Of a stretch of 26,381 nt of DNA, positions 3-26,381 are shown piece after piece. The stretch's first letter is position 1, and the number at the start of each line of letters is the position of its first letter. The position numbers and the translations under genes are program-made. Under the pieces are notes generated by a model. It saw nothing but the letters and a program-made list of their open reading frames with translations. It was not told the DNA's origin and did not search any database. Source of the stretch: a virus. Location of the stretch: the IMG/VR virus record IMGVR_UViG_3300021472_000137; one strand, given 5' to 3'.

Positions 3-191
3 CATCTGAGTGGCAGCGACTGTCGCTCTCTGTTCTCGCTTGAATATCTCGCAGCGATGGCTAAGGGCATCTCCTCGGAAACGCTCACGCTCTTCATAGG
101 CACGGACTACCCGCTGAAAATGGAGTTTGAGATTGCGGAAGGCTTCGGAAAAGTCATTTACTTGCTCGCTCCTCGCATAGAGGCTGAATGA
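3..191 (+). CDS. pcn: PCNA sliding clamp, C-terminal fragment (5' end outside window)
   Basis: Frame from 3 reads HLSGSDCRSLFSLEYLAAMAKGISSETLTLFIGTDYPLKMEFEIAEGFGKVIYLLAPRIEAE*, the typical euryarchaeal PCNA C-terminus (S-x-F/Y-S-L-E-Y-L, G-T-D-Y-P, YLLAPRIE). Confidence 0.93.
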   Translation, partial: HLSGSDCRSLFSLEYLAAMAKGISSETLTLFIGTDYPLKMEFEIAEGFGKVIYLLAPRIEAE

Positions 192-9019: not shown

Positions 9020-10072
9020 TTACAACGACACATGGATGCCCTGAATCGCCACGACGATGCTATCTGCGGAGATTGAAGTCCCGTCGTCCTGCACGAACAC
9101 TCTACCCTTCTCGTCATGAATCAGGAAGCCCCAGTTCAGGCGTGGCACCGCATAGAATATCGGCATGTCCTGCGGGAACAGCGGGTAGCCATGACCGAAG
9201 TGCAACGGATGCGCAACGGGATAATCCACTCTGAATCCCTCATTGGCAGGGTATTTCACCGTTCCTATCTTGATGCCTGCGTATTTCAGATGCTCAACGC
9301 TTCTCACGCCAAGCGACTGAATGAACACTGCCTCGCTGGCGTCTAAATCAAAGAAGAGGTTTTCTTCTGGCGTCTCAACCTCGTCCCCCTTGTGTGAGAA
9401 CTCATACTCTCTGTTTGCAGTCGTTGCGGAGGCGTTGTAGGCGAACCTCACGAGTGGAAAGACAACCGGCTTCGCTTGCCTCACGCCACCGACCATCTCG
9501 TCCCAGTGCTCTATTGAGACATCAATCGCATCTTTGGTGACATCCAGCGAGATTCCTCGGTTCCTATCCACAATCGTCGCAGGGTCGGTGTATGCTCTGT
9601 CGCCGAAAATGCGACGCAAATGTTCCTCTTCTTCGTATAAATAGCCATAGATGCGAATTCTGAACGAAGATGTGACTGCTGAATCGCCTGCGAATGCCTT
9701 GATGCCGAAGCTCTTCTTCGCCTTGAGCGTTAAATTCATGAGCGGGTGCGTCTCCGCTATTGCTCCTGAACCGAACTGCCACACCGTATTATAGATGAAT
9801 GAGCGAGGCGGTGCGGTGTTGTGCCAGTAGTATGGATTTATGAGGACATATTGCCCCAAGTCCTGGCCGTCAATTATCAGCGTCAAGCGTCGCAAGTCGC
9901 CTGCTGTTCCTGAAGAAATCGGCGAGAACACTTCCACATGCGTTATCTCTGCGACTTGGTTGCTTTCCAGCGATGTCGTTTGTTCCCACTTGTCGCCTGC
10001 GTCCAAGTCGCCCTCACTGCTGTGGTCGTAATAGTAATCTGCCAACAGACATGGGTGCGCTCCTTCTGCCAT
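9020..10072 (-). CDS. Putative double-jelly-roll major capsid protein
   Basis: 350 aa (STIV/TKV4-type DJR size); two beta-rich halves with parallel patterns (EITHVEV..LTLIIDG..FRIRIYGY / FIQSLGV..AGIKIGT..IVVAIQGI); first gene of the structural operon with its own TATA. Confidence 0.72.
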   Translation of the reverse strand: MAEGAHPCLLADYYYDHSSEGDLDAGDKWEQTTSLESNQVAEITHVEVFSPISSGTAGDLRRLTLIIDGQDLGQYVLINPYYWHNTAPPRSFIYNTVWQFGSGAIAETHPLMNLTLKAKKSFGIKAFAGDSAVTSSFRIRIYGYLYEEEEHLRRIFGDRAYTDPATIVDRNRGISLDVTKDAIDVSIEHWDEMVGGVRQAKPVVFPLVRFAYNASATTANREYEFSHKGDEVETPEENLFFDLDASEAVFIQSLGVRSVEHLKYAGIKIGTVKYPANEGFRVDYPVAHPLHFGHGYPLFPQDMPIFYAVPRLNWGFLIHDEKGRVFVQDDGTSISADSIVVAIQGIHVSL

Positions 10073-17243: not shown

Positions 17244-17802
17244 GCATCTGTGTGAGTATTTTGGCTATCCGAAGGAGTATGCGGAGTGGTCAGTCGCACC
17301 AGACATGGATTTGCCGTTCTTGCATCGCTTCTGGAGGCATCGCTTCTCCACCTTTGAGAGCATTTACAACGAATTCGCATACATGCATCCTTCCGTGCCG
17401 AAGGGTAGCAAAATCGCAATCGGCGTGATGCTCTGCTCTCACTTCCTTTTAGACATCTACAACGCACCGCTCTTCTGCTGGGGCATCTTCCTGCCTGCGT
17501 CGCACATACCGCCTGAACTCCTAAAGGAATACTTGGAGGGCGATTATCCGCTTTCGGAACTTCACAAGGAAGAGGTAAAATGCTTCGTTCAGCACTTGAA
17601 GCCTGAGAGTGCCTCTGCGTTCATGAACGGCGTTATTGAACTGCTTGCGACGCACACGCCTTTCATCACCAAGCGAAGAGTGCGCAAGGCGAAGAAGTGC
17701 GTTGAGAACTTCTGCTCCGTCTCGCTTACGGAAACTTACGACCTGCGTGAGTTTGATTCCGCCTTCTTCAAAACGCTTAACGAATTCTTCGCATCTCACT
17801 GA
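17212..17802 (+). CDS. Metal-dependent hydrolase, YdjM/Zn-phospholipase-C-like
   Basis: True start probably ATG 17212 (MDATSH); H...APDMD...HRFWRH...SHFLLD pattern. Confidence 0.65.
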   Translation: MDATSHRLLGKHLCEYFGYPKEYAEWSVAPDMDLPFLHRFWRHRFSTFESIYNEFAYMHPSVPKGSKIAIGVMLCSHFLLDIYNAPLFCWGIFLPASHIPPELLKEYLEGDYPLSELHKEEVKCFVQHLKPESASAFMNGVIELLATHTPFITKRRVRKAKKCVENFCSVSLTETYDLREFDSAFFKTLNEFFASH

Positions 17803-18683
17803 AACTGCGAGAGATTTGTCTGCCTTATCTTATGATAATTCATCCATATGCAATCAATCCTTCGCTGACCCTTCTTGAATGTCGCCCCTTCGCCTTGAAT
17901 TCCCGTGTGTCGTGTTCTGCCGACAGCATGACAGGCAACATTCCAGCATATCTTGTGCCATCCACAACGCTCCAATTCCTCATACAACTGCGAAGGATAA
18001 CCCGAAAGCATGATTTTCACGCCTCGCTCTTTCTTTATGACTTCTATGAGCTCTTCGTGCTGCTTCTCCGTGAATTCAAACCTGTAAGAGCCGTTTCGCC
18101 GTGTCTCTGGCATATAAGGCGGGTCTAAATAAACAAATGCCTTAAACCCTTTCTCCTTCCACACGGGAACATAACGCTCATAGACGGAAAGCCAATCATC
18201 GCACTCCACCTGAACACGACGCAAACGCTCATGAATTTCTGGCAACCTGTCTATCGCTGAAAGATAATTGCGAACTGCTTTCAAAGTCTCTGTGATGTTA
18301 TAACCCCATGAATTTCCCAAACGACCCCTAAAACTCATTCTCGCAAGCACAAAGAACAAATGCGCCCTTTCAACATTATCTTTCCACTCTTTATTTCTGA
18401 ACTTTCGTAATGCCTCGTTGTATTCGCCCCTTGAGTATAGGGTCAAATATGCGAGGCGGTAGAAGCGGGCAAACTTCTCTTCATCACGAAGCACCGCATA
18501 GAGATTCATCAAATCGCCGTCTATGTCGTTGATTACCTCTATTTTCACGGGCTCTTTCGCAAAGAATAGCGAGCCAGCACCGAAAAACGGCTCTAAATAA
18601 GCATCATGTTCAGGCACGAACTTCAACAACCTTCGCACTGAATTTCCCTTACCCCCAAACCACCAAATAGGCGACCTAAGCAT
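17796..18683 (-). CDS. dam: DNA adenine methyltransferase, Dam/D12 class (orphan)
   Basis: WFGGKG, YLEPFFGAGS (motif I), EVINDID, FVYLDPPY (motif IV), FTEKQHEEL, MLSGY. Confidence 0.95.
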   Translation of the reverse strand: MLRSPIWWFGGKGNSVRRLLKFVPEHDAYLEPFFGAGSLFFAKEPVKIEVINDIDGDLMNLYAVLRDEEKFARFYRLAYLTLYSRGEYNEALRKFRNKEWKDNVERAHLFFVLARMSFRGRLGNSWGYNITETLKAVRNYLSAIDRLPEIHERLRRVQVECDDWLSVYERYVPVWKEKGFKAFVYLDPPYMPETRRNGSYRFEFTEKQHEELIEVIKKERGVKIMLSGYPSQLYEELERCGWHKICWNVACHAVGRTRHTGIQGEGATFKKGQRRIDCIWMNYHKIRQTNLSQFQ

Positions 18684-18815: not shown

Positions 18816-19784
18816 CTACGAGCTCGCAAGTTTCCGCCACCACGCAGGCGGAATCCACCTCCAGTCTTCATCAATCCACAGAAACCTCTTTAGGTTCAGG
18901 GGCGGATACCGCTTCAACTTCCTTCTTATCGGAGAGCCATGCTCACGAGCCCATCGCAACGCCTTCTCCGTGTCCCAACCTTTCTGCGAGCATATTCGCA
19001 AGATTTCCTCGCAGCTTCTCCTATCAGCATTCAGGTATATGCCGAGAATGCGGGAGTTCTGCCAATCCGATGCCACATCCCCCTTCCAACTCTGCTTGAA
19101 CAGATGCCCTACTTCCGCTCTCTTATCAACGATAACGGGATGCTGTAATCGCCATAAACGGAAGCCATGCTCTTCTTCCCATCCTAAGCGACGATGCTGC
19201 CACAGAAATCCGCCGAACTCGTAAAAATGCCTGAACACTTGCGGGGTCATCACAAAGGCGCATCCACATACTGTCGGAACCGCAAAAATCCTCTCATCTG
19301 AGGAGGGAGCATACCAAACCCACTCAAACGGGTGCTTCGTGAATCTGAATGTCACGCCGTAGCCTGTCGCCCCTTTAACCTCGCAGGAGGGGAAATCCAC
19401 CACTCGCACAGGCATCCCTAAAAGCGCATTCGGATACTTTCGCAGCGTTTCCACTGCACTTTCAATCGCCTCTGGTGTAAAACACACATGGCAGTCAAAG
19501 AAGAACAACGCCTCTGAACGGGGCGACGCTATAATCGCACCTGTGTTACGAGCTGCACCGCAAGACCACACCCTTCCGACGATTTTAACGGGAAAGTCCG
19601 CCTTCTTACGCACATAACTCCGCTCCTCTGCGGGTGAAGCGGTGATGAAGCATAATTCTATCTCCTCCCCCTCCGCTGCGACATCGTTCAACTGCTTTAT
19701 CATGCGGTCTATAAACTCTTCCTCGTGGTATTCCTGAATGATGAATGTTATTATTTCCCTCTCACCTCCTACTTCTTCACCCAC
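18816..19784 (-). CDS. GT-A fold glycosyltransferase with DxH motif (GT2/GT27-like)
   Basis: CGAARNTGA, FFFDCH, VPTVCGCAFVM, GWEEEHGFRLW, VGHLFK; no TM or signal peptide. Confidence 0.88.
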   Translation of the reverse strand: MGEEVGGEREIITFIIQEYHEEEFIDRMIKQLNDVAAEGEEIELCFITASPAEERSYVRKKADFPVKIVGRVWSCGAARNTGAIIASPRSEALFFFDCHVCFTPEAIESAVETLRKYPNALLGMPVRVVDFPSCEVKGATGYGVTFRFTKHPFEWVWYAPSSDERIFAVPTVCGCAFVMTPQVFRHFYEFGGFLWQHRRLGWEEEHGFRLWRLQHPVIVDKRAEVGHLFKQSWKGDVASDWQNSRILGIYLNADRRSCEEILRICSQKGWDTEKALRWAREHGSPIRRKLKRYPPLNLKRFLWIDEDWRWIPPAWWRKLASS

Positions 19785-20656
19785 TTGAAATGAGCATAAT
19801 AGTCTTCCACACTCTTCTTCCTTCTCCTCATAACTTCCTTCCGCAAGGGTAAATACTTCTTCATCGCAAGGGCAAAGATTTTTTCCTTATTCGGACACAT
19901 GAGCACTTCATACATCCTGCGCACCGTGTTCCAGTCAAAGTTTATCAAACCCGTGAGAAGCCTCGTCAAGCAGTATTCATCCGCCTTCGTTTCATCCCAT
20001 CCCTCGTAGTAGGGCTTGTATATGTGCATCACAGCAGCAGACGGAACTACATAAGAAGGATGTCCCAATGTCCACATTCGCAAACAGAACTCATAATCCT
20101 CACACGGTATTCCCGGCAGATAGCCAAATATGCTATCCCGCCATGTCTGCGCACTCATAAACTGGAAACAGCCACAAAGCGACGGGACTTCCCGTGGCGT
20201 CTCGCCAAAGGAAGGGTAAAAAACCGTGTAATGCTTCTCCATCTTTGGGTCTTCTCGTGGGTCTACAAGAACGGTTGCCAAATTCATCTCCTTCTTATCT
20301 GCCGCATACTTTGTCGGTCCTACTATTGCCCCCTCCTTCGTGTGTAAAAAATCTATGAGCTTTTCATCCCATCTCTCTGCTCTCTCATCAAATAAAACAT
20401 TCGCATCGCAGAACGCCACATATTGCGCATGTAACTTGTTTATCGCATAATCCGCCCCCAAATTCCGTGCAATCCCTCTCGGCTCTTGGTTCTTCAAGTA
20501 GACTATGCGTGGGCTCTCTCTCAACACGCTTCGTGGGGCTATCCCACTGATAATAATATGATGCGGTAAAGTAGTATAACGCTCTATGCCCCGTATGGTT
20601 CTTATTGTATTCTCCTCTGGCTCTTTTTCGTGAACGGGAATCACTATGCCTATCAT
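19769..20656 (-). CDS. GT-A fold glycosyltransferase (GT2-like)
   Basis: IGIVIPVHE, GIARNLGA, AFCDAN, VPSLCGCFQFM, CEDYEFCLRMW, VMHIYK; no TM or signal peptide. Confidence 0.9.
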   Translation of the reverse strand: MIGIVIPVHEKEPEENTIRTIRGIERYTTLPHHIIISGIAPRSVLRESPRIVYLKNQEPRGIARNLGADYAINKLHAQYVAFCDANVLFDERAERWDEKLIDFLHTKEGAIVGPTKYAADKKEMNLATVLVDPREDPKMEKHYTVFYPSFGETPREVPSLCGCFQFMSAQTWRDSIFGYLPGIPCEDYEFCLRMWTLGHPSYVVPSAAVMHIYKPYYEGWDETKADEYCLTRLLTGLINFDWNTVRRMYEVLMCPNKEKIFALAMKKYLPLRKEVMRRRKKSVEDYYAHFKWVKK

Positions 20657-20658
20657 AC

Positions 20659-21039
20659 TCAGGGAAGCATCTCTTCCTTTCGCTTTATCACGGCGGTGAG
20701 CGAGCAGAACACATCTGGCAACGCATTCACAAACGCCTCTTCTATCTCAAGGCACTGAATATGCTTGTCCGCTAACTCCTCACTGCCGACAAACTCAACG
20801 ATTTCGTCGTAAGTAACGCATTCGCCCTTCTCGCCCTTGTCGTTCAAAAAGTCTATGAGCGCTAAATGCTTATTCACGAAGTCTTCAAGCGAAACTTCCG
20901 CTGCTTGAAACGCCCTTATTCCTCCGACTCTTGACGCAGCCCTTGACATAACTCGTGTCCTCCGACCCTGAACGCTTTGACCCTGAATCCTCATCGCTCC
21001 TATCCGCTTCGCATCCAACTTTCTCGCTCTCGCATTCAT
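20659..21039 (-). CDS. Basic N-tail plus helical domain protein, paralog A
   Basis: Arg-rich N-terminal ~42 aa; SLEDFVNKH..C..DEIVE..H..C similar to 21052-21363. Confidence 0.75.
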   Translation of the reverse strand: MNARARKLDAKRIGAMRIQGQSVQGRRTRVMSRAASRVGGIRAFQAAEVSLEDFVNKHLALIDFLNDKGEKGECVTYDEIVEFVGSEELADKHIQCLEIEEAFVNALPDVFCSLTAVIKRKEEMLP

Positions 21040-21051
21040 TCTCGCATCACC

Positions 21052-21363
21052 TCAATAGGTTGTCTTCTCACGCATCTTCTTCAGCAGGTCAAAGAGCATC
21101 TTTATGCCTTCCGTCGTGCATATTGTATCTTCTGTTGCCTTCGCACACGCCTTCGCTGCCAAGAACATCTCCTCGTGCAAGCGCCATCTGTCATCGGGAA
21201 TGCCCAGCTTCTCCCTCACATCTGAAATATGAGCGCAAGAGCCTATTTCCTCCTTAATCTTGCGGTGTTCTTCTATGAACGCATCTATGCTCATTCCCGC
21301 AACGCCCGCTCCTGGACCGCCGATTTCAACCGTTCCCAACTCCCTTCTCTCCAAAACGACCAT
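21052..21363 (-). CDS. Helical domain protein, paralog B
   Basis: SIDAFIEEH..C..SDVRE..H..C; GGTGATGTGA SD. Confidence 0.75.
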   Translation of the reverse strand: MVVLERRELGTVEIGGPGAGVAGMSIDAFIEEHRKIKEEIGSCAHISDVREKLGIPDDRWRLHEEMFLAAKACAKATEDTICTTEGIKMLFDLLKKMREKTTY

Positions 21364-21382
21364 TTCACATCACCTTGCACAA

Positions 21383-22423
21383 TCACACCGCAGACACTAC
21401 CGCAGACCACCCGTAAAGCTCTGCTTCCAGTATGTATGTTGCTCTCGTGTCCGCAAGCGCCGTAGAAGGCATTAGCACATCTACATACAACGAAATGCCG
21501 TCGCCAGGGTCTACAGGCTCGCTCACATCAGAGCTGAACGAGAACTCCTTGCCTTCCACATCCCCCGTCCCCTTGAATGTAAGCTTCACTTGATATGTCG
21601 CTCTTATCCCATCCGTCGGGTTCTCAACCCTCAACCTGAATGTATATGCCGAACCCACAGTGATAATGCGGGGAATTCTTGACTCTCCGACATTTATATA
21701 GCCTTTCACCTCGCCCTTACGCACCTCAATCTCAATCGGAGGCGCTGGCGGTGCTGGCGTCAGCTTCGTCAGCGTGATATACTTATCTGTATCTTTATAT
21801 ACTGCAACAGTAGTCTCGTAGTCCGCATACCCTCTCTTTGTGAGTTTGATTTTATAAATCCCCTCACGAATCTTGAATGTTTCAGGCGTCAGCCTATATG
21901 TGTCCTCGCCCTCAATGAAAATCATCGCACCAGGCGGGTCGGACACTATCGTAAGGCAATGATAACCACTCCCTGGCGGTGGAGGGCACTCCTCTTTTGA
22001 AATCGGCTCCCAAGTAGGACCAGGTGTCGGCGGAGTAGGCGTAGGTGTCGGAGTAGTCGGAACGGGTGTCGGCGTCGGTGTTGGCGAAGGCGTCGCAACT
22101 TCCGTATAACAGAACTTGTTCGGAGCATCAGAATGATTCGCTATCCAAACTATGTCCTCATCTGTTAAAGCAACACCCCCGTTCTTTTCCCTTAATTTCG
22201 CCGCATCTATTTTGCCCGTTTTGTTGTATTTATCCTCGTAAGAGTAGCCTCCATCTAATATTGTCACCACTGCATCAACAGTGGAACCCCAATACTCCTC
22301 ACCTTTGGGAGTATATACTAAAACCGTTGTCGCATCTGTGTCTGTGAAACAGTATTTATTCGCCTCTGGTGATTCGCCCAAATACTTTGCTATGTATCTC
22401 TTGCATTCTTCTGTCAGCGCCAT
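21383..22423 (-). CDS. Pro-Thr linker + PEGA + Ig-like domain protein
   Basis: ATG 22423 coupled by TAATG; TPSPTPTPTPVPTTPTPTPTPPTP; PEGA LTIVSDPPGAMIFIEG...TP...EGIYKIKLTKRGYADYETTV; C-terminal FRLRVENPT..YQVKLTF. Confidence 0.88.
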   Translation of the reverse strand: MALTEECKRYIAKYLGESPEANKYCFTDTDATTVLVYTPKGEEYWGSTVDAVVTILDGGYSYEDKYNKTGKIDAAKLREKNGGVALTDEDIVWIANHSDAPNKFCYTEVATPSPTPTPTPVPTTPTPTPTPPTPGPTWEPISKEECPPPPGSGYHCLTIVSDPPGAMIFIEGEDTYRLTPETFKIREGIYKIKLTKRGYADYETTVAVYKDTDKYITLTKLTPAPPAPPIEIEVRKGEVKGYINVGESRIPRIITVGSAYTFRLRVENPTDGIRATYQVKLTFKGTGDVEGKEFSFSSDVSEPVDPGDGISLYVDVLMPSTALADTRATYILEAELYGWSAVVSAV

Positions 22424-23061
22424 TATGACCACCCGCACCCTATCTTCGCATCTCCCATACTATACAGCTCCAAGTAATAATAACGCACTCCTAAATATTG
22501 CTCCCATGAAATCGGCGAAGGAATGCTCGCAGGTCTTATGTCTTCTGGAATCGCTTTCCTCCTTGACTCCGCCAAATCACTCAGACCTAAATACTCATAG
22601 CGCAACGCAAGCACATGATTCCATGTCAGATTTCCCTTTCCAGCACTCTCCACATAAGCACACACCTCAGCATTCGGCACTGGTGTCGGCGTTACGGTTG
22701 GCGTCGGCGTTACCGTTGGTGTGGGTGTCGGTGTCGGCGTAGGTGTAGGCGTCGCAACCGCAGCACAGTATGGTGGCGTCTTCTCCTGCTCTTCACAAAC
22801 CGTCTTGACATCTTCTATGTCTAAATCATAACCATTCGCTTTTACAAAATCCTCGTAACTCTTCCCATTCACGATTTCTTTCGTCGTGTAGGGATAGCCT
22901 AATAACGATGCAACAACGAGCATCGCAGCGACATCCGTCGTTGAACCCGTGTGAGAATTGCCCTCTAAATCCTTGTAGGAGACGCCTGACGATGCAAAAC
23001 AGTTGTTCACGCCTGCATTGATTGCAAGCCAGTCCTTCCCACCATTCGTGAGTGTCATCAC
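22423..23061 (-). CDS. Pro-Thr linker protein with C-terminal Cys-bracketed module
   Basis: ATPTPTPTPTPTPTVTPTPTVTPTPVP, then VCAYV...YYY...GDAKIGCGW. Confidence 0.88.
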   Translation of the reverse strand: MMTLTNGGKDWLAINAGVNNCFASSGVSYKDLEGNSHTGSTTDVAAMLVVASLLGYPYTTKEIVNGKSYEDFVKANGYDLDIEDVKTVCEEQEKTPPYCAAVATPTPTPTPTPTPTVTPTPTVTPTPVPNAEVCAYVESAGKGNLTWNHVLALRYEYLGLSDLAESRRKAIPEDIRPASIPSPISWEQYLGVRYYYLELYSMGDAKIGCGWS

Positions 23062-23300
23062 GAATCACCCAACGCACATGGCGTCTTCTTATCCCCTTCT
23101 CTCACATTTCCCTTATAGTATTCCACCGCTCCATATATATAATCTTTCGTGGAAACATCAAACCCTAAATCTTTTACCCCACAGAACGCTAAAATCAAAT
23201 CCTTCAACTTCTCCGAGCTCGGATTCGAGGGCAAATCCTGAACGAATGCGCAAAATCCCGTATGCACCTTCCCTACTGTCCGCTCATCCTGCTTCGCCAT
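23058..23300 (-). CDS. Stand-alone Cys-bracketed dockerin-like module protein, 80 aa
   Basis: FCAFV..KLKDLILAFCGVKDLGFDVSTKDYIYGAVEYYKG..GDKKTPC. Confidence 0.8.
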   Translation of the reverse strand: MAKQDERTVGKVHTGFCAFVQDLPSNPSSEKLKDLILAFCGVKDLGFDVSTKDYIYGAVEYYKGNVREGDKKTPCALGDS

Positions 23301-23306
23301 CGTCTC

Positions 23307-24206
23307 TCATGCGTAGAGCGTCGCATCTATCGTGTAAGTTCCGCTCTGCAGGTTCAGCGGCAAGTCCCAACGCACATATATCTTGTCCTTCTTCCCAACA
23401 TCTATGCTCTTCTTCGCACTCGTTAGCGTCGTTGAATAGCCCGGTCCTGAAATCTTGACATCTACCCAGTAATTCGCCTTTATCTTGCCTGTGTTCTCCA
23501 CGCACACCCCTATGTTTATTGAAGTCCCCGCCTTCGCCGACGACGGAATGTCATGCTCATCGCATATTTTTCCCTTCGGCGCTGGCGTGCAACAGTTCGC
23601 ACATATCGTGTTCGCATCCTTCCCATCCGCTTTTTCAACAAAATCCCACTCCGCAACTGTGATGTTGCCTTTTGCGTGGTCTATCCATGCATTATCAGAG
23701 GAAACCACGCACTGGTCATCCGCATAGTGCTTCAACAACTCGCAGCCGCTTGAATAGTGCGGTGTCGCCTCCCAGCATGTAACCTTCTTCTCCACCTTGA
23801 AAGTGTCGCTTCTTGAATAGGAGCGCAGATTCACCCAGTTCCCCGTGCGAGGGTCTTTCGCATCCAAATACACCGCAGTTATCGTATATGTTTTGTCCGC
23901 CGTAAGCCCTAAATCAGGAGGCTGTGCCTTGAAATATATCCCCTTAGTCGTGCCATGCGTCATCTTTCCTGTGCCATAAGTATCCACCGCACCGCTCAAC
24001 GACGGCGAAATGCTTATGCGCACCCTATACTCCAAATCCAGCGAAGAATCCGCATGAACAACGCAGTAATAGAATTCATAGTATGCAGATGCCGCCTCTG
24101 GAACATTGCCGACGACTTTGAAATCGCTGAGCTTCGCATCCACCCCCGTCACTGAAATCTCTTCTATTGCTCCTATCCGTATGTCCCTTTTATGCATCTC
24201 TACCAC
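23307..24206 (-). CDS. Ig-like/CARDB-type multidomain protein
   Basis: C-terminal AKAGTSINIGVCVENTGKIKANYWVDVKI...KIYVRWDLP...GTYTIDATL; N-terminal beta-sandwich; Cys-rich helical middle. Confidence 0.82.
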   Translation of the reverse strand: MVEMHKRDIRIGAIEEISVTGVDAKLSDFKVVGNVPEAASAYYEFYYCVVHADSSLDLEYRVRISISPSLSGAVDTYGTGKMTHGTTKGIYFKAQPPDLGLTADKTYTITAVYLDAKDPRTGNWVNLRSYSRSDTFKVEKKVTCWEATPHYSSGCELLKHYADDQCVVSSDNAWIDHAKGNITVAEWDFVEKADGKDANTICANCCTPAPKGKICDEHDIPSSAKAGTSINIGVCVENTGKIKANYWVDVKISGPGYSTTLTSAKKSIDVGKKDKIYVRWDLPLNLQSGTYTIDATLYA

Positions 24207-24215
24207 CTCACACGC

Positions 24216-26159
24216 TCACCAGCCACAATCATATTCGCCCCCTTTGTATATTTTTACTACGCCCTCTATGTCTTTGCGAAGCACCACAAATCCTACATCT
24301 CTGAGATTATTGAATGCGAGAATTAATTCTGCAATATCCATTGATGTGACTTTCGCAGGAAGCCACTCGCACAACGGCAGCGGTTCCTTCCCTTTCACAA
24401 TCATCTTCTTTGAAAGCCTTATCCATTCATGAGATGCATCGCCATCCATTAGTGTGAAGCGAACAAAATCATACCCCTCTACTGAGACCTCAATCTCTTT
24501 TTCGGTAGGTCCCAATATTCCACTCTCCTCATAGAGAGTGCTCCATTCCTTCATATCCTCGCTTCCTTCTACCTTTATACCCCACCATGCGTTCCGCCTC
24601 ACTTTGAATTTCAACGATGAGCCACGAACACGCATCACAAGGCGGGGATACTCCTCTCCTTTTACTCTAGTTGAATACCACCACTCATCTTCCTCGGTGA
24701 GAACTTCATCAGGGTCTTCCACTTGCACAAAGAACGGCGAATCCTCCGCCAGAACAACAAGCTCACAAACTGGAAAAGTGTCAATCTCGCCGAAAATGAA
24801 CTGCTCAAGCAGCTCATAATCTCCCCAATCTATTATGCCATCCGCATTCACATCCGCCCGCCTTTTCTGCTCTTCCGTAAGCGTAACGAGGCCTTGGATA
24901 TATTCCCCGAGTAGTCTCGCATCCTTCGGGGACACATAGCCATCATCATCTAAGTCCCCGTAATCCTTACACGGCGGTCTCGGAGGCTCCTTTACACGCA
25001 GTTCCTTCGTTACAGAGCAACTCTCGTTCTGCAAATAGATGAAATATGTGCCTGTTTCTTTGGCTTCAAAACTTTCACTGCCACTACCGCTCACAGTCTC
25101 CTTCAGAACATACTCGTATGATGGCGAAATAACCTTCAAAGTCGTGTCCGCAGGCGCATTCTCATACTCCACTTCAACATATATGTATTGCACCGTCTCC
25201 GTGACCTCCTCGCCCCCAACCTTAACACTCAACGAACACGGCGGAGGCGTCGGGGTCGGCGTAGGTGTGGGCGTTGGAGTTGGAGTAGGGGTTGGCGTAG
25301 GTGTCGGCTTCGCAGGAACTGTTCTCTCTATTTCCTCCACCACTTCTTCGCTCTCTGTCGCCTTTTCAACCTCCACTAACTTGAAAACAATCGTGCCTTC
25401 AGATGGAGGGCTCGGAATGAGAAGCGTCGTGCTTAGCGTAGGCAAATATATCGTGCCTTCTGTCAGTTTCTCGCCATCAGAGAACACACGAATCTTATAG
25501 TAGTAACAATATTCACTATCGCACTTCTCAACATTCGGCACAATTGAGACAGCCGCATACAAATAACCATCCTCCCAATACAACTCAACAGAGCGGAAGT
25601 GCGATGAAAACAAAGCGAACATGTGATTCAGGAACCACGCCTTGACAAACGCAACATACCCTGAATCCTTTCGCTCATATTCGTATGTGTAAGGCAGCAA
25701 GCCCACTTCGCTGTAAAAGTCACGAATTCGCTGGAAAGCATCATCAAAAGTATCGCCATAAATGCCCCAGTATGGAGGCTTACTCACACTTCTGACATCA
25801 TAACCTAATAATTCCGCCAACTCTTTTATCCTGTCAAGAAACAAATCCTCACGAGAGAGATGCTGACCCTGCCACTTGATATAACATCTTCCGTAGCCCA
25901 CACAACCATCCGTGCAATGCTTGTGATGCACATATTCAAGCGTGAAACCTAAACTCTTAATCTCGTCTTGCACAGATTTCTTCAGTTCCACGCATTCTCT
26001 CGACACACAAATCACGGAAGAATTCGGAAAAGGCGGTGTTACCTCCACATCTAAAAGCTGTCCTATGTTCTCCCAAACTTCAAATGAGCCGTATTCATCA
26101 GGCTCGGTATTACCATACGCCTTCTTGTATAGTTCCTTGACCGCCTCCTTCTTGTCCAT
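24216..26159 (-). CDS. 647-aa multidomain protein: Pro-Thr linker, Ig-like domains, dockerin type I, C-terminal Cys-bracketed module
   Basis: (PT)~12; YGDLDDDGYVSPKDARLLGEYIQG..LTEEQKRRADVNADGIIDWGDYELLEQFIFG = duplicated EF-loop/helix dockerin (~24770-24965). Confidence 0.9.
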   Translation of the reverse strand: MDKKEAVKELYKKAYGNTEPDEYGSFEVWENIGQLLDVEVTPPFPNSSVICVSRECVELKKSVQDEIKSLGFTLEYVHHKHCTDGCVGYGRCYIKWQGQHLSREDLFLDRIKELAELLGYDVRSVSKPPYWGIYGDTFDDAFQRIRDFYSEVGLLPYTYEYERKDSGYVAFVKAWFLNHMFALFSSHFRSVELYWEDGYLYAAVSIVPNVEKCDSEYCYYYKIRVFSDGEKLTEGTIYLPTLSTTLLIPSPPSEGTIVFKLVEVEKATESEEVVEEIERTVPAKPTPTPTPTPTPTPTPTPTPTPPPCSLSVKVGGEEVTETVQYIYVEVEYENAPADTTLKVISPSYEYVLKETVSGSGSESFEAKETGTYFIYLQNESCSVTKELRVKEPPRPPCKDYGDLDDDGYVSPKDARLLGEYIQGLVTLTEEQKRRADVNADGIIDWGDYELLEQFIFGEIDTFPVCELVVLAEDSPFFVQVEDPDEVLTEEDEWWYSTRVKGEEYPRLVMRVRGSSLKFKVRRNAWWGIKVEGSEDMKEWSTLYEESGILGPTEKEIEVSVEGYDFVRFTLMDGDASHEWIRLSKKMIVKGKEPLPLCEWLPAKVTSMDIAELILAFNNLRDVGFVVLRKDIEGVVKIYKGGEYDCGW

Positions 26160-26191
26160 TTCTCTCCCATCACTTCTTCATCACTTCTTCA

Positions 26192-26381
26192 TCACGAGCG
26201 ACGCATACGCTCTAACAAACGCCACAACCTCAAGAAGCCCGCAAACTTGCAACCTGTCAAATCATCACCCGTGTCAATATCGCCTCTCTTATACGCTGCC
26301 ATCCCGTAAATCGCATCACGATTCACAGTGAAGTAGTAATCAATAATGCCGTTGAACGCTAAAATCATCTGCTGAATATCC
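26192..26381 (-). CDS. C-terminal fragment of another protein carrying the Cys-bracketed module (5' end outside window; not in ORF track)
   Basis: Frame from 26380 reads DIQQMILAFNGIIDYYFTVNRDAIYGMAAYKRGDIDTGDDLTGCKFAGFLRLWRLLERMRRS*. Confidence 0.85.
   Translation of the reverse strand, partial: DIQQMILAFNGIIDYYFTVNRDAIYGMAAYKRGDIDTGDDLTGCKFAGFLRLWRLLERMRRS

Follow-up and report, generated by a model that had tools for sequence, protein, structure and literature searches.

A recombining dockerin cassette on a probable archaeal virus as a candidate module for adhesion to host cohesins

The type I dockerins of cellulosomes (Clostridium thermocellum CelS, 1DAQ/2MTE, and Xyn10B/XynY, 1OHZ/2CCL) are close relatives of the module described here, with which they share the full-length PF00404 profile and to which they are linked by direct sequence matches at E values of 1e-8 to 1e-4. 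Non-cellulosomal cohesin-dockerin modules are present in Archaeoglobus fulgidus and in anaerobic methanotrophic archaea (ANME) of the groups ANME-1 and ANME-2 (Chadwick et al. 2022, PMC9012536); they are archaeal and have no link to cellulose, and the same applies here. ANME-1 encode many cohesin and dockerin proteins, including proteins that combine a dockerin with multiple cohesins, and are reported to have scaffoldin-like proteins with as many as five cohesins (PMC9012536). Dockerin domains have also been reported beside a signal peptide-bearing NosD-like protein on the contig of a putative ANME-2 virus, and adhesion roles were proposed for them (Narayanan et al., ISME J 2026, PMC13452462). 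In the present study, we analyzed a 26,381-nucleotide stretch of DNA from the IMG/VR virus record IMGVR_UViG_3300021472_000137 (hereafter, the window), which encodes a dockerin within a modular protein that we named P0001. We propose that this dockerin may be an exchangeable adhesion module, carried by the virion and plugged into a cohesin of the host, and we assign a probability of approximately 0.45 to this whole chain.

Sequence comparisons confirmed that the module in P0001 is a genuine full-length dockerin, far above chance. PF00404 (Dockerin_1) matched residues 400-455 at 39.3 bits (E=7.3e-10) over positions 1-56 of its 57 positions, for which the curated cutoff is 22.9 bits, and the homologue in the metagenome locus L006 scored 38.9 bits. 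In a phmmer search of PDB sequences, P0001 matched solved dockerins, namely 8x39 (1.8e-8), 1daq/2mte (CelS, approximately 4.6e-6), 1ohz/2ccl (XynY), 4fl4, and others. The module comprises tandem F-hand repeats of approximately 22 residues, each with a 12-residue Ca-binding loop followed by a helix. Loop positions 1, 3, 5, and 12 are occupied by acidic or amide residues (D402, D404, D406, and D413 in the first loop; D436, N438, D440, and D447 in the second), and the secondary structure in the AlphaFold2 (AF2) model places helices at residues 411-421, 429-434, and 445-455, with a predicted local distance difference test score (pLDDT) of 32-49 over residues 391-470. An earlier note on this DNA had placed a canonical type I dockerin with two intact Ca-binding loops at 24765-24970 and had named the PF00404 profile as a check. 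The call was right: the peptide that it quoted was found exactly, the interval lies inside the module (24765-24977) on the minus strand (the note gave no strand), the ligand positions are kept in P0001 and in seven further homologous genes, and the profile match exceeds the gathering cutoff over the full profile length.

P0001 is composed, in order, of an N-terminal domain, a Pro-Thr (PT) linker, an Ig-like domain, the dockerin, a beta-sandwich (beta-rich) domain, and a C-terminal Cys-bracketed module. The AF2 model was built from a five-sequence alignment and had a mean pLDDT of 49.7, and the Ig-like domain was its sole reliable part. The fold of this domain matched the macroglobulin domain 2p9r_B in VIA-align (Z 10.2, root mean square deviation 2.0 Å, 80 residues) and also resembles CARDB, PKD, and S-layer Ig domains, while the fold search was uninformative on the dockerin, the N-terminal domain, and the post-dockerin domain. 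The N-terminal domain matched no known family, and its ESM Atlas score of 0.76 was uninformative. P0001 has neither a signal peptide nor a transmembrane segment; the most hydrophobic stretch of 15 residues within the first 50 residues reached 0.36 on the Kyte-Doolittle scale.

P0001 and the cellulosomal dockerins have in common two F-hand repeats, with 12-residue Ca loops and then helices. However, P0001 lacks a signal peptide and an enzyme domain, its dockerin lies within the protein instead of at the C terminus and is enclosed by a pair of conserved cysteines, and the genome segment yielded no cognate cohesin. Since the two repeats differ at helix positions, a symmetric dual binding mode is doubtful for this dockerin. 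The archaeal proteins described in PMC9012536 are cellular and secreted (ABC substrate-binding and S-layer proteins), whereas P0001 is encoded on a virus-like element and has no secretion signal. The nearest cellular dockerins that share this Cys-bracketed subtype are carried by proteins (L019, L020, P0006, P0007, P0011, and P0013), each of which starts with a signal peptide or a lipobox, in keeping with display at the cell surface. The absence of a signal from P0001 fits an exit from the cell on or with particles. Similarly, no signal peptide was detected by hydropathy in the extracellular-type proteins of the operon, including the giant proteins described below.

A metagenome scan yielded 17 loci (L001-L017) in which this gene family occupies the same operon. 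Homologues of P0001 were found in metagenomes only, and a large protein collection gave proteins that are 74-77% identical. The dockerin is carried by eight genes of the family (in the window, L012, and L001-L006). In L009, L010, L011, and L014, the residue equivalent to 392 is joined straight to 468, such that the dockerin alone is missing and the neighboring genes are the same; the remaining relatives have other modules or orders between the constant ends. This precise absence from four relatives indicates that assembly does not require the dockerin, which is the behavior expected of a module for interaction with the host. Three sequence types (A, B, and C) can be distinguished among the eight dockerins; their Ca-ligand positions are invariant, and the differences lie mostly in the two helices after the Ca loops. 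In type I complexes of the 1OHZ type, these dockerin helices contact cohesin. The ratio of nonsynonymous to synonymous substitution rates (dN/dS) in the dockerin was 0.02-0.19, and the dockerin is thus maintained by purifying selection. Synonymous divergence (dS) between dockerin types was 1.2-2.5, in contrast to 0.3-0.5 for the adjoining Ig domain. Furthermore, N-terminal identity is uncoupled from the dockerin type, and the database fragment P0144 has a type-B dockerin fused to a type-A downstream domain. Based on these three results, we concluded that the modules are swapped by recombination.

In the family member at L007:10272-12341 (plus strand), the place of the dockerin is taken by another Cys-bracketed segment with a single loop-like motif, DLKGDEEIDIFD, which may be a degenerate half-dockerin. 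Regarding the lineage that donated the dockerin, a pattern-limited genome scan favored DPANN and Altiarchaeota, and an exhaustive HMMER dockerin search returned thousands of matches, few of which were named (candidate phyla radiation). We also noted a group of proteins (P0070, P0155, P0082, and P0150) that includes proteins with 21 and 24 dockerin stretches as well as small signal-less proteins made up of a tandem pair of dockerins, each with a Cys bracket (PPCGNYGD...TFP[VI]C).

The host was approached through the archaeal PCNA gene at the edge of the window. A full-length member of this PCNA family scored approximately 159 and 158 bits against 1rwz and 3hi8, which we take to be the Archaeoglobus and Haloferax clamps, and approximately 87 bits against the next group. 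The nearest named PCNA was from Candidatus Methanospirareceae (ANME-1c; 47% identity, 231 bits), and the next named clamps, from Methanosarcinales and Methanocellales, scored 195 bits or less. Candidatus Methanospirareceae are known only from the hydrothermal sediments of Guaymas and Pescadero. This single gene points to an ANME-1-type archaeon as the putative host. The PCNA family of the element (P0027-P0066) forms approximately 40 clusters with 58-100% identity in metagenomes only, suggesting that the element family is abundant. An identical PCNA C-terminal fragment occurs in one protein on a 139-kb contig, which may represent either a genome of far greater size or a copy that has been integrated.

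The steps of the proposed mechanism are as follows. The virus-like element would produce P0001 inside an uncultured ANME-1-type archaeon that is thermophilic, in the cytoplasm of this host, and P0001 would most likely be located on the virion surface together with its operon partners, namely the giant PKD protein, the CARDB-like and PEGA proteins, and two glycosyltransferases. The constant N-terminal domain and the C-terminal Cys-bracketed module probably fix P0001 to the particle or to its partners, and the exchangeable modules, one of which is the dockerin, are held on Pro-Thr linkers between these ends. On reaching the Ca-rich fluid beyond the cell, the dockerin would fold and plug into a cohesin on the surface of the host or the consortium. 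The outcome would be a reversible, high-affinity primary adhesion, and which cells are bound may be tuned by whether the cassette is present and by which of the three types it has. A more specific version, in which an ANME-1 virus family uses the dockerin cassette to engage scaffoldin-like cohesins of the host as the primary receptor and in which the types and presence of the cassette set the host range, is offered tentatively and is rather unlikely as it stands.

We searched for the partner of the dockerin. No cohesin (PF00963) was detected by Pfam in the open reading frames (ORFs) of at least 130 amino acids (aa) in the window at E values of up to 0.01, 1, or 10, or in the giant PKD proteins, the variant family members, and the beta-rich proteins (the last at E values of up to 10), nor was one detected when the family of the 299-aa protein was compared with PDB by profile search. 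The dockerin may nevertheless serve plug-in assembly within the virus by binding a virus-encoded domain of the cohesin fold that lies outside the searched DNA or is too divergent for Pfam, in which case P0001 would be attached to the virion or to a further viral adhesin. In favor of a viral partner, several beta-rich domains of the operon have no family match, the C-terminal module common to these proteins shows a construction for modular docking, and the search covered a portion of the element, which is at least 45 kb in size. However, the absence of a cohesin at any threshold in the window ORFs and giant proteins, the precise loss of the dockerin from four relatives with the same neighbors, the lack of any gene that co-varies with dockerin presence across relatives, and a complete Ruminococcus phage that has a dockerin without a cohesin weigh against it, and we consider this explanation unlikely. 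The earlier note had proposed that the virus uses either a host surface cohesin as a receptor or tether or an internal cohesin-like partner for assembly. Between these two options, the host surface cohesin is the better supported because no cohesin was found in the window or the available DNA of its relatives, the dockerin is dispensable, the PCNA is ANME-1-like, and ANME-1 proteins with multiple cohesins have been reported. On the other hand, the description of either option as an unusual attachment mechanism was overstated: dockerins also occur in a structural module of Ruminococcus phages and on the published contig of a putative ANME-2 virus (PMC13452462), for which adhesion was hypothesized.

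Several features suggest that the element is a virus. Short palindromes are extremely depleted in the 26 kb: GATC, CGCG, and ACGT are absent, and GTAC (1), CTAG (2), GGCC (4), CCGG (9), and TCGA (10) are rare relative to the roughly 85-100 occurrences expected for each, while CATG, AGCT, and TGCA are close to expectation. Such depletion is typical of elements that face restriction. The element is rich in ORFans, with most ORFs having no family match. A LamG protein matches PHROG families annotated as virion structural proteins (E 6e-20). The candidate capsid protein, the nearest ESM Atlas clusters of which are viral, has a 50%-identical homologue in L007 and weak leads to PM2 P2 and VP17 (0.75-0.77, ESM Atlas). 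We conclude that the carrier element is a probable virus. The term viral protein in the earlier note is accordingly probable, based on the palindromes, ORFan content, PCNA and Dam genes, extracellular-type domains in proteins that lack signal peptides, LamG protein, and capsid-candidate clusters, and it lacks a verified hallmark fold or packaging ATPase. The association of P0001 with virions is, in our assessment, somewhat favored.

Alternatively, P0001 may not be a virion protein. The element could be a plasmid, an integrated island, or a non-viral mobile element, or P0001 could be non-structural and alter adhesion at the host surface or in the consortium through the cohesins of the cell, being released at lysis or by another export route in the manner of an auxiliary gene product. 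According to a published hypothesis, adhesion genes of viruses change the cell-cell adhesion of the host (PMC13452462), and the lack of a verified virus hallmark, the identical PCNA fragment on the 139-kb contig, and the two GT2 (glycosyltransferase family 2) genes in the operon are in line with this explanation. However, the extracellular-type proteins are all without the signal peptide that a role at the cell surface normally needs, and the viral ESM clusters of the capsid candidate, the PHROG matches of the LamG protein, and the palindrome depletion typical of restriction-exposed elements also speak against it. We regard it as an improbable account of the locus.

The location of the type differences mostly in helices, which contact cohesin in solved complexes, argues against a dockerin fold that operates without a cohesin. 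Such a use, as a Ca-dependent stabilizer or spacer or for another ligand (a glycan, the S-layer, or a mineral), appears very doubtful: for many dockerins outside cellulosomes, no partner is known (Peer et al. 2009, as summarized in PMC9012536), and no cohesin was found in the four incomplete metagenome-assembled genomes (MAGs; labeled DPANN, Altiarchaeota, and Campylobacterales) that hold the nearest cellular dockerins, but the archaeal dockerins tested so far bind cohesins specifically according to the same summary (refs 167 and 168 in PMC9012536), and the inferred host lineage is rich in cohesins (PMC9012536).

Several observations weigh against the adhesion of virions through a host cohesin. 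Single-sequence AF2 of the capsid candidate gave a pLDDT of 36.7, and its fold, for which the double jelly-roll of tailless icosahedral archaeal viruses (e.g., Coyopavirales of ANME-1) was considered, was not obtained; its sequence had no match in PHROGs, Pfam, INPHARED, or IMG/VR, and INPHARED phage records and IMG/VR also contained no relative of P0001. A packaging ATPase (of the FtsK/HerA type), terminase, and integrase were not found in the window or L001-L017; among ORFs of at least 120 aa in the same DNA, the sole P-loop ATPase motif match was the Dam methyltransferase homologue of L017, and no tRNA genes were detected. The confidence of AF2 over the dockerin region was low, as given above. 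Positive selection on the dockerin was considered and rejected because gross dN/dS was far below 1 (eight sequences, three types). The link to the host is drawn from a single gene, that of PCNA, and one relative of P0001 was binned in a MAG labeled Chloroflexi. We interpreted the latter as mis-binning because the window ties the P0001 gene family to an archaeal PCNA. Moreover, the element is at least 45 kb in size, and the search covered the window of approximately 26 kb and the flanks of its relatives; a viral cohesin could be elsewhere, and a divergent cohesin fold may escape Pfam. The coordinates of the features are summarized in Table 1.

Table 1. Positions of the features discussed in the text. 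Positions without a locus name refer to the window; residue numbers are those of P0001.
Feature	Position	Strand	Basis or remark
P0001 gene (647 aa, modular)	24216..26159	-	ORF and translation, family alignment, hydropathy
Constant N-terminal domain (approximately 280 aa)	25320..26159	-	Residues 1-280; in all full-length family members
Pro-Thr linker	25239..25313	-	Residues 283-307; length differs among family members
Ig-like beta-sandwich	24984..25238	-	Residues 308-392; AF2 pLDDT 74-90
Dockerin module	24765..24977	-	Residues 395-465; Cys397/Cys465 bracket PPC...TFPVC; Pfam and PDB matches
Ca-binding loop 1	24921..24956	-	Residues 402-413, DLDDDGYVSPKD; positions 1, 3, 5, and 12 invariant in eight homologues
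Ca-binding loop 2	24819..24854	-	Residues 436-447, DVNADGIIDWGD; D1, N3, and D12 invariant and position 5 D/N in eight homologues
Beta-rich post-dockerin domain (approximately 120 aa)	24390..24758	-	Residues 468-590; missing or moved in some relatives, a shuffled module
C-terminal Cys-bracketed two-helix module of P0001 (approximately 50 aa)	24219..24377	-	Alignment and blastp cross-matches
Copies of the C-terminal module	24219-24377, 23061-23300, 26195-26380	-	Also L003:6043-6252, L013:2891-3085, and others
Giant PKD protein gene, 3' end	26192..26381	-	Last 62 codons only in the window; adjoins the P0001 gene upstream
299-aa protein	23307..24206	-	Weak CARDB/Ig-like match; downstream of the P0001 gene; syntenic in 11 relatives with or without the dockerin
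351-aa PT-linker protein with PEGA domain	21383..22438	-	Pfam PEGA 38 bits; synteny
Two GT2-family glycosyltransferase genes	18816..20656	-	Operon end; PF00535 30.8 bits (above cutoff) and 19.5 bits (below cutoff)
D12-class N6-adenine (Dam-type) methyltransferase gene	17796-18683	-	Pfam 87 bits; phrog_56 (phage methyltransferase) 213 bits
Candidate capsid protein (350 aa)	9020..10072	-	91-93% viral members in the closest ESM Atlas clusters (score 0.94)
Archaeal PCNA gene, 3' end	3..191	+	PDB matches to archaeal clamps
DUF5678/protease pair	L007:4044-4328, L007:4409-4864	+	Also L002, L003, L010, L012, L016
Ruminococcus phage dockerin protein	L035:6282-8498	+	Also L036-L043, L023; listed together with G005 loci L044-L049

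The P0001 gene is part of a co-directional block that is conserved across loci. The block encodes the giant PKD protein, P0001, the 299-aa protein, an 80-aa protein, a 212-aa PT-linker protein, and the 351-aa PEGA protein; it continues with two small ORFs and one or more GT2 glycosyltransferases, with the Dam-type methyltransferase and a winged helix-turn-helix regulator located farther on. In relatives, the giant protein is approximately 1,650-1,810 aa in length (931 aa in L011) and carries three PKD domains along with the C-terminal module seen in P0001. This module, with a consensus of roughly DIxxLILAFNGIxDLGFxVSxxDIxGAVxYYxG...C, ends both the giant PKD protein and P0001 and forms most of the 80-aa protein. 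There are two subtypes (...CGW and ...GNNLTGCSL). It may be a shared anchoring or oligomerization module. We also considered that it may be a degenerate dockerin; however, hhalign gave no significant match (probability 0.9%, E 0.058), despite an F-hand-like aligned pattern.

The operon at 18816-26381 (minus strand) encodes the two GT2 enzymes together with three proteins that have PT linkers, namely P0001, the 212-aa protein, and the PEGA protein of 351 aa. PT linkers in cellulosomal proteins are O-glycosylated. Virus-directed glycosylation of the PT linkers by the GT2 enzymes of the operon is a testable idea. Directly upstream of the giant PKD gene, all relatives that reach this region encode a DUF5678 protein and a retropepsin-like aspartyl protease, the latter with a DTGFS motif and a gag-asp_proteas match of 26.7 bits, slightly below the cutoff. 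At the far end of the 28.5-kb relative L007 (18223-21159, minus strand), a protein with a PAPS-reductase domain lies with a RAMP-superfamily (Cas7-like) protein. Two pairs of neighboring paralogous small genes are present in the window, at 1047-1361/1363-1665 (plus strand) and 12200-12820/12817-13059 (minus strand); their near-identical N-terminal stretches suggest tandem duplication.

In hydrothermal and seep sediments, a large share of the methane is consumed by ANME-1, of which there is no pure culture. To our knowledge, nothing is known about the mode of attachment of ANME-1 viruses. Since the dockerin is small and autonomous, its partner may be found in vitro by screening the three types against ANME-1 cohesins, and a question on an uncultivable virus and its host thereby becomes a bench assay. 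If the proposed adhesion to a host cohesin is correct, the surface scaffoldins of ANME consortia would double as virus receptors, and this added selective pressure could explain the variation in scaffoldins between close relatives. If the more specific version outlined above, with scaffoldin-like cohesins as the primary receptor, is true, it would be the first pair of receptor and ligand for a virus of the uncultured methane-oxidizing archaea and the first natural case of a virus hijacking cohesin-dockerin assembly; the Ruminococcus phages would be its convergent counterpart in bacteria.

Dockerins are absent from the text of the ANME-1 virome paper and its supplements, whereas one is listed for a jumbo phage in a brine-pool preprint, and we found no published proposal or demonstration that a virus dockerin uses a host cohesin as a receptor. 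The putative ANME-2 virus contig (PMC13452462) is likewise a case of viral dockerins in archaeal consortia of hydrocarbon seeps or hydrothermal sites with a hypothesis of adhesion; however, in a comparison by description only, the P0001 case differs in the absence of NosD and a signal peptide, in its ANME-1c-like PCNA, and in the optional and recombining nature of the cassette. The new aspects of P0001 are thus the cassette behavior, the three types, the missing secretion signal, and the orphan status of the dockerin, as no viral cohesin was detected.

In Ruminococcus phages and prophages, a 738-aa dockerin protein (51.5 bits) is encoded in nine IMG/VR contigs (L035-L043) and in the R. intestinalis genome (L023), and we found no description of it in the literature. 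Its gene is flanked on one side by the portal and major-head genes and on the other by the gene for a giant protein (more than 1,840 aa); the 738-aa protein lacks a signal peptide and matches phrog_511, annotated as an internal virion protein. No cohesin was found in the Ruminococcus phage records, one of which is 100% complete by CheckV, while the R. intestinalis genome has six cohesin domains. Similar to P0001, this is a signal-less dockerin in a virus, the genome of which yielded no cohesin. In contrast, its carrier is a bacterial tailed phage, and its dockerin is 45% identical and lacks the Cys bracket. By analogy, this parallel suggests that microbes displaying cohesins may generally be targeted in this manner. 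The architecture of P0001 also resembles that of phage receptor-binding and decoration proteins (Ig-like, PKD, and BACON domains; swapping of tail-fiber tips), in which constant anchors are combined with swappable distal modules through recombination at linkers. However, the swappable module of P0001 is a protein-protein plug that otherwise serves the assembly of cellular surfaces.

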